Shown: piece after piece, positions 21,001 through 24,000 of the stretch
Layout of the letters: the number at the start of each line of letters is the position of its first letter
Numbering within the stretch: the first letter of the stretch is position 1
NCBI GenBank assembly: GCA_963666735.1
Contig: OY762926.1
Span: forward strand, 2,080,001-2,144,000
Origin: Gemmatimonadota bacterium
Lineage (GTDB): Bacteria; Gemmatimonadota; Gemmatimonadetes; Palauibacterales; Palauibacteraceae
Reading direction: 5' to 3'
DNA length: 64,000 bases
Program-made: the position numbers

Positions 21001-24000
21001 GCCTTATGCGCTCACGCTCCGCTATGGACAGAGACACGAGCGCGAGGTGGACGCCGCCTGTCGCATGGCGAAAGCGATGCGAGTGATCCGGCACGTGGTC
21101 GCCGACGTCGATCTGCGCGCGTTCGGGGGCTCGGCTCTCACCGCCGACCTGGAGGTACCCAAGAGCGGGCGCGCCGTGGCGGATTCCGAGGAGATCCCCG
21201 TCACGTACGTTCCGGCGCGGAACACGATCTTCCTCTCGATGGCTCTGGCGTGGGCGGAGGTTCTCCGGGCTTCGGACATCTTCATCGGTGTCAATGCCGT
21301 CGACTACAGCGGATATCCCGACTGCCGACCGGAGTTTCTCGATGCGTTCGAGGGACTGGCCGCCCTCGGTACCAAGGCGGGGGTCGAGGGGCGTCGGCCG
21401 TTCCGGATCCATGCACCTCTGATCGACCTCACCAAGGCGGAGATCATTCAGCGCGGGCTCGCGCTGGGCGTCGATTACGGGATGACACGGAGTTGCTACG
21501 ATCCCGATGAGTCGGACGCGGCCTGTGGAGAGTGTGACTCCTGCCGCCTGAGGCTCACGGGATTCGCGGCGGCGGGAGCCCGGGATGCGGCCCCGTATCA
21601 GCCCCGTTAGCGAGGGCGGCGCGGCGCCTTCGGCCAGGAGTGTCCGGGCTACGGTGGCTCCGGGTTCGGGCAGGTGTCTGTGAACCGTCCTCGCCATGCC
21701 GCGTGACCCGAACGAGCAACCGGTCGATGGTCGCGCGTTCGCCGGTTTCCTTGTTCATGGCATGAACGATTCGGCCACGCTGGCCGACCCACAGCGTATC
21801 TGCGCCGAATTGGCCGATGAACCAGCTCTGGAGCGTGTCGGCGGAGGCTTCATCGATCTCCGTGACGCGCGGTCCGTCCAGTATCCAGCAGCGCGCGCCG
21901 AAGCACACCGTGAACGCAAGCGCGACGCACGCGAGATTCACCGATTCATCGTCCCATGGGGGGTCATGCGGCCCGCCTGGGCTGCGAGGAGCCAGGTTTC
22001 CCGGGCCGGAGAGAACAGAATTCGCGTCATCCTTGTCAACCTTGCAGCGACTCGTACGCGATACACCGCAGTGCAAGCCGCGATGTCTCAACCTAGGAGA
22101 CGCCTCACGCTGTCACTAGTGTTGGATCGGAAACCGCCGAGCTAGCGAGAGTGCCGGGAGGGGGGGGCGCTGCCCGCGGCACCAGCGCGATGGAGGCGGA
22201 GCAGGAAACTGCGGGGGGATTGACTCACCTGCTTCGCAGATTCGTCGAGCTCGCGCCCGTTGGTCGCTCGGTTGGCTTCCTCCCGCTCCGCGGGACTCGC
22301 CGAGCTCGCTCCCTCCGGTCGCTCGGTTCGAACCCCTTCCTAGCGGAGAGGGGGGGATTCGAACCCCCAAGCCCGTGAGGGCGCCGGTTTTCGAGACCGG
22401 TGCATTGCCGTTCTGCCACCTCTCCGAGTGCCGGCCACCGGGATGCTGGCGAAAGCCTGAGACACCCGGTACGCGCGACCGGGGAAGGTGCTCCGCGAGG
22501 GCTCCTGCTGTCAAACTTTCGGGGCTGCCGCGGAGTGTTGCGGCGGAGGGGGTGGGATGGACTCACCTGCTTCGCAGATTCGTCGAGCTCGCGCCCGTTG
22601 GTCGCTCGGTTGGCTTCCTCCCGCTCCGCGGGACTCGCCGAGCTCGCTCCCTATCGGTCGCTCGGTTCGAACCCACGAGGGGCAGCCTCTTCGGCCTGCC
22701 TCGTGGATACTGCTCAACGGACGGGGTGGGATTGGCTTCCTCCCGCTCCGCGGGACTCGCCGAGCTCGCTCCCTCCGGTCGCTCGGTTCGAACCCACGAG
22801 GGGCAGCCTCTTCGGCCTGCCTCGTGGATACTGCTCAACGGACGGGGTGGGATTCGAACCCACGAGGCAGGGTTGCTGCCCACACGCTCTCCAGGCGTGC
22901 GCCTTAGTCCGCTCGGCCACCCGTCCAAAAAAAACGCCTCCGGGTGTGCCGGAGGTATTGCTGCAGGCGGAGGGGGTGGGATTGACTCACCTGCTTCGCA
23001 GATTCGTCGAGCTCGCTCCCTTCGGTCGCTCGGTTCGAACCCACGCGACTCTTTCGAGTCGCCCACGCCTCCTTCTTAGGCGGAGGGGGTGGGATTCGAA
23101 CCCACGAGACTCTTTCGAGTCAACGCCTTAGCAGGGCGCCGCCTTAAGCCACTCGGCCACCCCTCCGCAGGTGCTGCTGTGCTGATTGGCCCGCCAGGAC
23201 TCGAACCTGGAATCTTCTGGTCCAGAGCCAGACGTGTTGCCAATTCCACCACGGGCCAACGTCCCAGTGAGTTGGGCCGTCGATAATACTTGTGGCGGGT
23301 CGCGGCTTCAAGCGCGACCCGCGTCTTCGGAGTGGGATGTCGGAGGTCCGGACGACTCCTGCCGGACCGGGGCGAGGTTGTGGGGGGGGGGTCGCCGAGG
23401 CGCCTATTCGTCGGGGCTGGAGCGTTCGCGAAGGTTGGGGAGATTGTCCAGTTCTTCCCTCACCCTTACAAGCGTCGGGTAACCGTCCCCGGAGCGGGGA
23501 GCGTTTTCGTCGGCCGCCGGGACGAGGTACCAGCGATCTGCGCGATCGTCAGGCCGATCCATGTAGTGCCCGCGCTCGATTCGGTACCCCGCGAGGTTGG
23601 CACGGAAGCGGAGCGCCCTCAGCATCACGCCGGGATCGAAGTTGGAGGAAGGCACCATCGCTACACCGGGCCGGAATCTGTGGACAACATCCGGATGCGC
23701 ACCTCGCACGACTTCCAGATGAATGGTACGGCGCGGCAGCGCGTCGTCGTCACGCGGGCTCCACTTTCGGAATAGTCGGCCGGATGGAGCGTGTGCGTCT
23801 TTGTCATTATGGCGGGGAAGCCCGGGACGCCGGTCAGCGCATCGAGTACGAGCAATCCTCCGACGATCAGCCAGATCTGTTTCTTCTTCACAATCCCAAC
23901 AACTCCGTGGCGGGGCGACACCGGCAGTGCCCCTCCTAAACTAGGGGTTAATGCGCGCATGGGCTATGACCGCCCCGGGTGTGCCGCTCCGTACGAGGCG

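Follow-up and report, generated by a model that had tools for sequence, protein, structure and literature searches.

A two-hairpin element in the T-loops of duplicated tRNA ends of a Gemmatimonadota bacterium, a probable minimal relative of tRNA-linked repeats and a possible mobile single-stranded DNA module

Why does the same small palindromic sequence split one duplicated tRNA end after another behind the tRNA-Ser genes of a Gemmatimonadota bacterium, and is it a mobile element, a host RNA or a by-product of replication or integration? The stretch analysed here (64,000 nucleotides, hereafter the window) carries six copies of this element (hereafter E). An earlier note had counted ten copies in the genome, and a search with the pattern AACCGAGCG-N8..14-GCGAGYTC confirmed this number with 10 matches versus 0 for the reversed control. 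The six window copies lie on the minus strand (starts at 23033, 22786, 22665, 22609, 22326 and 22271), two more lie after Ser-TGA and two at Ile-GAT. Including the terminal dinucleotide, the ten copies measure 50-67 nt. Since short-read contigs of two independent studies (X2 and X5) reproduce the element/tRNA junctions without differences, the array is not an assembly artefact; none of these contigs spans the whole array, and two other runs show strain variants.

Each unit behind a Ser gene has four parts, namely a spacer, the T-stem 5' strand in copy together with TTCGAA, E itself (52-56 nt in the window) and a duplicated tRNA 3' end. The units adjoin the tRNA genes directly and often stand in tandem, which is the location that characterizes tRNA-linked repeats (TLRs). 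On the minus strand, the cluster begins with an intact tRNA-Gln(CTG) without an element (23184..23259, gene call), followed by the intact tRNA-Ser(GCT) (23079..23166). The left part of unit 1 (23034..23078) contains an arm and then a copied variable arm, the T-stem 5' strand and TTCGAA. Its arm (23062-23072) is complementary to the T-stem/acceptor 3' copy within unit 1, and longer degenerate versions of this left part occur at loci L019-L021. Element E1 (22982..23033, 52 nt) consists of hairpin 1 (H1), hairpin 2 with a GAA triloop and a terminal AA. It is followed by the Ser-GCT 3'-end copy (22966..22981), beyond which the original downstream sequence resumes and matches the empty sites of relatives. 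A putative terminator, read from the sequence as a hairpin with a T run, lies at 22927..22955.

The intact tRNA-Ser(GGA) (22838..22927) is followed by the left part of unit 2 (22787..22837), in which an antisense arm folds over the copied variable-arm/T-stem strand, with TTCGAA next; the arm (22816-22827) is the exact reverse complement of tRNA positions 22860-22871. After E2 (22732..22786, 55 nt, GGA triloops), a Ser-GGA 3'-end copy and, in tandem, the left part of unit 2 once more occupy 22666..22731 (79 nt identical), with the antisense arm recurring at 22695-22706. E3 (22610..22665, 56 nt) has E4 (22558..22609) directly behind it, and the latter ends in CA. The closing tRNA 3'-end copy (22542..22557) is of the Ser-GCT type in spite of its location at the GGA locus, which by its sequence would be a sign of exchange between Ser loci. 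Behind the intact tRNA-Ser(CGA) (22343..22425), the left part of unit 4 (22327..22342) is reduced to a purine run and TTCGAA, mimicking the acceptor and T-stem 5' strand. E5 (22272..22326), identical to E2, and E6 (22220..22271) directly behind it lead to a remnant of the Ser-CGA T-stem 3' strand (22213..22219) and then a broken acceptor copy. Apart from this last broken copy, the 3' ends of the units show 14-16 bp of identity to the gene from position 60, in addition to the preceding AA. None of the tRNA genes in the window encodes CCA.

The position in the T-loop, as claimed by the earlier note, held for these copies, which follow TTCGAA or TTCAA, and so did the two tandem cases, in which an element follows the AA end of another copy. 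The reading of AA as a repeated target sequence did not hold. Because positions 22558-22559 read CA and because empty REP sites elsewhere show no need for a duplication (see below), the AA or CA is regarded as the right end of the element itself.

E is variable within the genus, with 30 of 36 genomes carrying 1-10 copies each. At the Ser-GCT locus, 9 of 28 genus loci were filled, 16 were empty and 3 contained foreign DNA. In the filled loci, what stands beyond the last 3' copy is identical to the sequence found downstream in the empty loci. Hence, the added DNA consists of spacer, T-stem strand, E and one 3' end, and this polymorphism can be explained by loss alone. Ile-type and Ser-type E remain distinct throughout the genus, and thus exchange is not constant. 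One genus member has E away from tRNAs. Outside the genus, 381 genomes of the phylum gave 10 single matches, close to the control count; nine look like chance, and the L058 locus resembles the Ile unit.

A wider distribution was revealed by a scan of GTDB genomes. The junction pattern, which omits GGG T-stems, returned 65 stretches, about 45 of which (counted by eye) are true elements by their context, with the remainder due to chance. They come from Wenzhouxiangellaceae and other Gammaproteobacteria, Bacteroidales (at Cys, Arg and Tyr), Thermoanaerobaculia and Gemmatimonadota, and the same core is present in four phyla. Hairpin 1 was found in 34 of 93 Wenzhouxiangellaceae genomes. A class-level survey of 401 Gammaproteobacteria genomes, from which the G551 and G808 loci were left out, gave 32 genomes with a match, which is the control level except for G417, G712, G826 and G879. 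A catalogue of 230 units (109, 113, 6 and 2 by group) was assembled, and 156 of them could be resolved. The left flank is TTCGAA in 167 units and TTCAA in 22, and the right end is AA or CA. Seventeen anticodon classes are represented among the resolved units, with His probably mis-assigned and the Ser isotypes partly confused because Ser 3' ends are alike; Gly, Pro and Gln were recognized by visual inspection. A near-identical composite of two elements, with the same linker and second hairpin 1, occurs in the T-arms of Gly, Leu and Pro tRNAs, which have nothing but TTCRAA/TC in common. As homologous recombination would hardly yield such a composite, we infer at least a few independent moves of E.

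The sites of E are not restricted to tRNAs. In Wenzhouxiangellaceae, E is also located inside CGTC-type REP hairpins at the border of stem and loop (12 filled sites in 9 loci, compared with 17 empty REPs). A filled REP equals an empty REP plus an E ending in CA, which indicates insertion without target duplication; the T-loop sites are ambiguous in this respect because E there ends in AA. The REP-embedded copies share one type of hairpin 2 and may descend from one insertion. The preceding tetranucleotide is not fixed, as CGAA, TCAA, TGAA, CAAA and CCAA all occur. The earlier statement that E is confined to tRNA genes is correct for this genome and fails for the family. The underlying idea of a small insertion element targeting T-loops is supported, although the earlier note lacked the kinship with TLRs, the antisense tRNA copy of the spacer and the REP sites.

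Whole interrupted tRNA copies also exist, and it might be supposed that E is a removable T-loop intron and that these copies are functional. Fourteen such copies were closed in silico, and more were seen. An intact gene of the same anticodon lies downstream in 11 of the 14 and upstream in none. As for the remaining rows, L021 is a spurious call, L252 has a mutated anticodon, and L099 has no twin within 5.7 kb. Moreover, several whole copies have broken acceptor ends, and splicing would have to take out the extra dinucleotide as well. We consider an intron highly improbable.

The same tRNAs are hot spots for genomic islands, and 8 integrase matches are present in the genome. E might thus be a scar of tyrosine-integrase islands, either an att remnant or a cis-mobilisable element, with the T-loop as sublocation; the direct repeat of 14-19 bp from the T-loop does resemble an att core. 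However, the islands examined each have a shorter 3'-end core of their own, integrate into the intact gene and displace the units downstream (L042, L043, L044, L050, L066 and L099), and none was found using the core of the E unit. E is present in the displaced att halves of islands. One core in 17 anticodon classes goes beyond the site range known for integrases. Viral scans gave 10 matches to the junction pattern and 64 to a loose H1 pattern, all chance by context, and in IMG/VR the strict junctions gave 0 and 0; blastn against plasmids and phages gave short chance matches only, without the junction. An origin as an integrase scar is accordingly judged quite unlikely. A function of the units as decoys for island integration was also considered and rejected, because the examined islands had entered the intact gene.

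The fold of E was then compared on both strands. In hairpin 1 the flanks are invariant and the inner stem is variable: among 86 variants, 54 have a Watson-Crick start, 21 a tandem GA/GA and 11 another start. The paired changes previously noticed in this hairpin were confirmed as tandem GA/GA in the Ser copies and GC/GC in the Ile copies. For 26 long elements, 99.7% of cells are paired and 6 of 13 pairs are compensatory (0 of 500 shuffles), in a MAFFT alignment of related genomes, an input that inflates covariation scores. Among 137 distinct E, C-GNA-G triloop hairpins were counted 168 times on the tRNA strand, once on the other strand and 0.5 times in shuffles, with all four loops used; the tandem GA/GA motif gave 211 versus 0. 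An RNA tetraloop alternative is absent for 158 of 247 such loops. The E. coli TLR mini-hairpins gave corresponding values of 47, 0 and 2.6. Standard folding energies of the elements are unremarkable (z from -1.6 to +1.5). The standard energy model has no term for the stability of DNA mini-hairpins. With respect to replication, two loci are co-directional and one is head-on, and the skew is weak. According to PMC13037366, in the part available, GCGNAGC mini-hairpins have a far greater stability in DNA than in RNA and are found at priming sites of single-stranded DNA. This stability, together with the strand-specific triloops and tandem GA, leads us to infer selection on the single-stranded DNA form of E.

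The spacer is the other structured part. It usually carries an antisense copy of the neighbouring tRNA, follows the sequence variants of that tRNA and can pair with the T-stem strands of its unit. The tRNA copies have no CCA here, and in E. coli they take in the terminator as well, so that a mature tRNA is an unlikely template.

These features also permit the view that the unit is a structured RNA selected by the host. It would be co-transcribed with the tRNA, mimic a tRNA 3' end by its arm and copied tail, be cut by tRNA-processing enzymes, act as an sRNA or a protein sponge like the E. coli RtT and RrA/B/F RNAs, and spread by duplication and conversion. The rRNA-linked RrA/B/F are indeed transcribed, processed and able to bind Hfq and CsrA in vitro (PMC8144298, in the part available). 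In addition, the antisense arm fits the cognate tRNA better than any non-cognate one in 56 of 93 downstream units, the units sit between tRNA and terminator, and RNA folding recovers both hairpins of E1 and E2 on the tRNA strand. On the other hand, the triloop and tandem-GA pattern suits DNA and not RNA, and the arm is missing where E lies in a REP loop, an att remnant or a dead whole tRNA. The copy number varies from 0 to 10 within one genus, and E. coli cells from which all 22 TLRs had been removed were built and used (same source). RNA contigs cover part of the cluster, although assembled contigs cannot show strand or ends. We regard a host RNA as a possible explanation of lesser probability; it can coexist with a mobile module.

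Alternatively, E could be a hairpin for single-strand initiation or for the restart of forks. A direct-inverted-direct triplication could then have arisen by fold-back synthesis where the terminator and the variable arm lie, without any dedicated transposase. At L176/L245 the spacer prolongs the palindrome of the terminator so that it becomes an inverted copy of the complete tRNA 3' end, which agrees with such an accident, as do the CCGAAGG and GCGNAGC mini-hairpins at primase sites (PMC13037366, in the part available) and the lack of a co-occurring transposase in the PF01797 and NF047646 searches of 36 genus genomes. The accident leaves unexplained the insertion into REP loops and unrelated T-arms with single-base precision. 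Neither would fresh copying give the conserved non-complementary arm loop GGATGAGAA or the A-rich linker shared across isotypes and orders. A replication accident is hence considered unlikely, though less remote than an integrase scar.

If E moves, an enzyme should act on it, and candidates were sought. The earlier observation that the genome lacks a Y1 transposase was upheld with 0 matches to PF01797, Y1 being the HUH family that was covered, and the RAYT model NF047646 had 0 matches in the 36 genus genomes, though 30 of them carry E. The PF01797 matches in 7 of the 36 represent one syntenic gene without the HUH and Tyr residues, i.e. a catalytically dead Y1 fold. E was absent beside 30 Y1 genes of Wenzhouxiangellaceae, and the counts for E versus Y1 in that family (23/11/24/35) are confounded by kinship and completeness and were set aside. 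An autonomous partner with the same ends (IS200/IS605 type) was not found in the genome, at the PF01797 matches of the genus or at the 30 Wenzhouxiangellaceae Y1 loci. Two partial PF02371 (IS110) matches are present in the genome. A reverse transcriptase was rejected as partner, being present in 11 of 36 genus genomes and missing from the E-rich G004, G006, G014 and G035. Likewise rejected was a small GIY-YIG nuclease, one gene of which lies 115 bp from a REP-embedded E (L278); a motif screen detected none near other E loci and none of that size in this genome.

TLRs were first reported in 1978, with no function assigned (PMC8144298, in the part available, which cites Egan and Landy 1978 and Rudd 1999), and are defined there by 18-19 bp of 3' identity to the upstream gene. 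At E. coli tyrT/tyrV, serX, proK, lysQ/lysV and arg, the units read terminator, antisense T-arm, GGTTCGA, (Y)CGAGCG..GCGAG, hairpins, CCCGnAGGG, GAGT-AA/CA and tRNA tail, although not every K-12 unit has all of these parts. The CCCGnAGGG module was present in all 17 E. coli TLR ends found, a number below the 22 annotated TLRs because only part of the K-12 loci was fetched and parsed. This module is missing in the genus and present in Wenzhouxiangellaceae, whose hairpin 1 matches that of the genus exactly. What the Wenzhouxiangella units have in common with E. coli is the GGATGAGAA arm, the module and the ends; hairpin 1 links them to the window. Further bridging forms are L400, L420 and L423 from other Gammaproteobacteria and L427-L429, among which the inner loops TCA/CCA of Wenzhouxiangella L427 and L429 are those of E. 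coli tyrT.

A covariance model built from 26 elements of Wenzhouxiangellaceae and Gammaproteobacteria, containing no tRNA letters and no E. coli sequence, scored E. coli proK at 27.2 bits, the tyrT units at 16-21 and three window copies at 20-21.5, with 18 for the best unrelated match in the window; several E. coli TLRs and window copies thus exceed the local background. Searched genome-wide, its two best E. coli matches were both TLRs with an E-value of 3.6, and a non-element match ranked first in this genome. The Rfam RtT model RF00391 gave no match at E<=5 in the window and none at E<=0.5 in 10 related loci, compared with 133-138 bits in E. coli, and sequence HMMs from 66 and 29 elements missed the E. 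coli TLRs. An Rfam sX4 match was dismissed as the tRNA-Ser part of that model. Judged from layout and motifs, the E units are very probably minimal, distant relatives of the TLR/RtT family, with weak support at the level of sequence and in genome-wide searches. The element family is therefore not new; the new part is the evidence for its core as a mobile single-stranded DNA module. Insertion into T-loops or mobility of TLRs was not found in the literature searched, a collection without most subscription papers, among them Rudd 1999 and Egan and Landy 1978, where part of the anatomy may be described. In the available part of PMC8144298, the supplement does not mention the T-loop and the main text mentions neither mobility nor insertion. 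According to passages of 10.1101/2024.07.17.603846, its supplement discusses the coverage of rttR in exonuclease-resistant DNA.

We propose that the core E is a non-autonomous single-stranded DNA insertion module of TLR-family units, a model which as a whole we hold to be evenly poised between right and wrong. Shown are the anatomy of the units, selection on the fold, the mini-hairpins typical of DNA on one strand, and the occurrence of E in many unrelated T-arms and in REP loops beside empty ones; the mode of insertion is proposed. A trans-acting enzyme would insert E 3' of AA in a hairpin loop, be it a T-loop, a REP loop or the end of another E, without target duplication. As a first and tentative guess, this enzyme could be an HUH-type single-strand transposase. 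Insertion into the sole copy of a tRNA would destroy the gene, and E copies would thus survive only in spare T-arms, such as whole duplicates, att remnants of islands and 3' duplicates made with a fold-back tRNA copy, the antisense arm. Recombination between the 14-19 bp tRNA 3' repeats would then add or remove units, and conversion would swap E variants among the look-alike Ser T-arms. The copies in this genome may be old and no longer moving. The spread into many unrelated T-arms and REP hairpins suggests a tiny mobile DNA element at the heart of TLRs. A bolder and rather doubtful extension would see in all TLRs, E. coli RtT and the rrnB T1-T2 spacer among them, the footprints of a single pan-bacterial transposon, a single-stranded DNA of about 45-100 nt that carries no gene and is inserted next to AA in hairpin loops. 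The antisense arm would then be a locus-matched guide or a by-product of tRNA-gene rescue, and an anticodon-loop island would also be locked in place once its displaced half had received an insertion.

So far, studies of TLRs have treated them as RNAs. The minimal form described here, which has an invariant core, a fold of the DNA type, precise empty sites and targets outside tRNAs, makes excision and insertion of single-stranded DNA, as well as a binding protein, testable. If mobile, E would count as one of the smallest mobile elements with a site preference, and it would offer a new way for tRNA genes to duplicate and decay and for islands to become fixed.

Compared with known systems, the E units resemble TLRs in their tandem arrangement behind tRNA genes, the ends copying the 3' end of the gene, the split T-loop and the antisense arm, as well as in the YCGAGCG..GCGAG start, the AA or CA before TCC and the DNA mini-hairpins on the tRNA strand only. 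They differ in being much shorter, with two hairpins and, in the genus, no CCCGnAGGG module, and in that E is also found in dead whole copies of tRNAs, in REP loops and in att remnants. E has a second target in the CGTC-tagged REPs (Di Nocera et al. 2013, PMC3733652) and is itself neither a CGTC nor a GTAG REP; the available part of that paper reports no REP in tRNA genes. In contrast to REPs and REPINs with a RAYT, the foot of E is CCGA and not GTAG or GTGG, and the 36 genus genomes lack a RAYT gene. Like IS200/IS605 derivatives (PATEs) and REPINs, as introduced in the background of PMC6006769, E is small and built of hairpins, and it seems to enter on the 3' side of a short motif with no duplication; in contrast to them, it has no fixed target tetranucleotide, prefers hairpin loops and has no cognate transposase that could be found.

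The closest likeness to a known enzyme system lies in the class 3 Y1-HUH (TnpA-REP-like) genes, whose flanking hairpins combine a CnGA foot with a GCGACC/GGGAGC stem (Quentin et al. 2018, PMC6006769, in the part available). As in hairpin 1 of Ser-type E, the foot is followed there by a tandem-GA hairpin (Table S1). Ser-type E has a class 3-like foot and stem with different spacing, and the inner stem varies in other copies. The class 3 hairpins have three extra bases between foot and stem, lack the GAGYTC tail and are dispersed in hundreds of copies, and the main text of PMC6006769 reports no link to tRNAs. Such hairpins were absent from 5 E-rich genomes and from this genome, and no class 3 signature was seen among the 30 Y1 loci or in 80 viral loci. 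By analogy of foot and stem, the class 3 Y1-HUH hairpins may nevertheless be taken as the best lead to the enzyme that would move E.

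Among the genes flanking the tRNA cluster (window 18795-28960, recognised from motifs), which we take to encode a nicotinate phosphoribosyltransferase, a nicotinamidase, QueC, a PolX-PHP protein and an NAD-dependent ligase, nothing mobile was found adjoining the cluster. Within it, the Rfam family sX4 aligned to window 22306-22435, which is a plain tRNA-Ser with its flank. It would seem from this match that the family, listed as an "sRNA", mostly represents a tRNA-Ser gene. Elsewhere in the same genome, at least 12 identical copies of one coding stretch, presumably an IS integrase core, were observed (for example at contig 2476977, 2982010, 3212613 and 3222581), and one copy lies about 3 kb from the tRNA-Ile units of the two-hairpin element.

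A gene with the Y1-transposase fold was present as a single, syntenic copy in seven genomes of the genus (L101-L107), flanked by two housekeeping genes. Neither the HUH motif residues nor the catalytic Tyr is present in it, and it may be domesticated. In our genome this gene is deleted, leaving a gap at contig 1405285-1405520. At one locus (L278:2200-2650), CGTC-type REPs, a second site of the element besides T-loops, cluster around a small GIY-YIG nuclease gene, and one of these REPs holds the element. To our knowledge no transposase is assigned to such REPs, and the nuclease is a candidate partner for them. In one genome, a weak reverse-transcriptase match was located about 1 kb from element copies at tRNA-Ile (G031:C2:129095-129529, L074).

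The element was also contained in displaced 3' tRNA halves at island ends (L082, L083, L089 and L090) that begin in the anticodon loop. Excision of such an island would reassemble the tRNA in a broken form, and hence the island could be locked. Outside T-loops, intergenic tandem runs of the element, partly unassembled (N runs), occur at two loci (L294 and L095, genome G024), a pattern that hints that the element was recently amplified in this species.

Three Bacteroidales loci (L211, L188 and L204) carry a second, longer structured unit downstream of tRNA-Cys; its last part repeats the 3' end of that tRNA, whereas its interior is different. As for the tRNA-linked repeats (TLR) of E. coli, the module made up of the hairpin and CCCG.AGGG is also present in the 5S-linked TLR of the rrnB T1-T2 spacer (L393), which terminates at AA, ahead of the 5S tail. 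Given this common module and AA end, the same core may target the end of a non-tRNA RNA gene.
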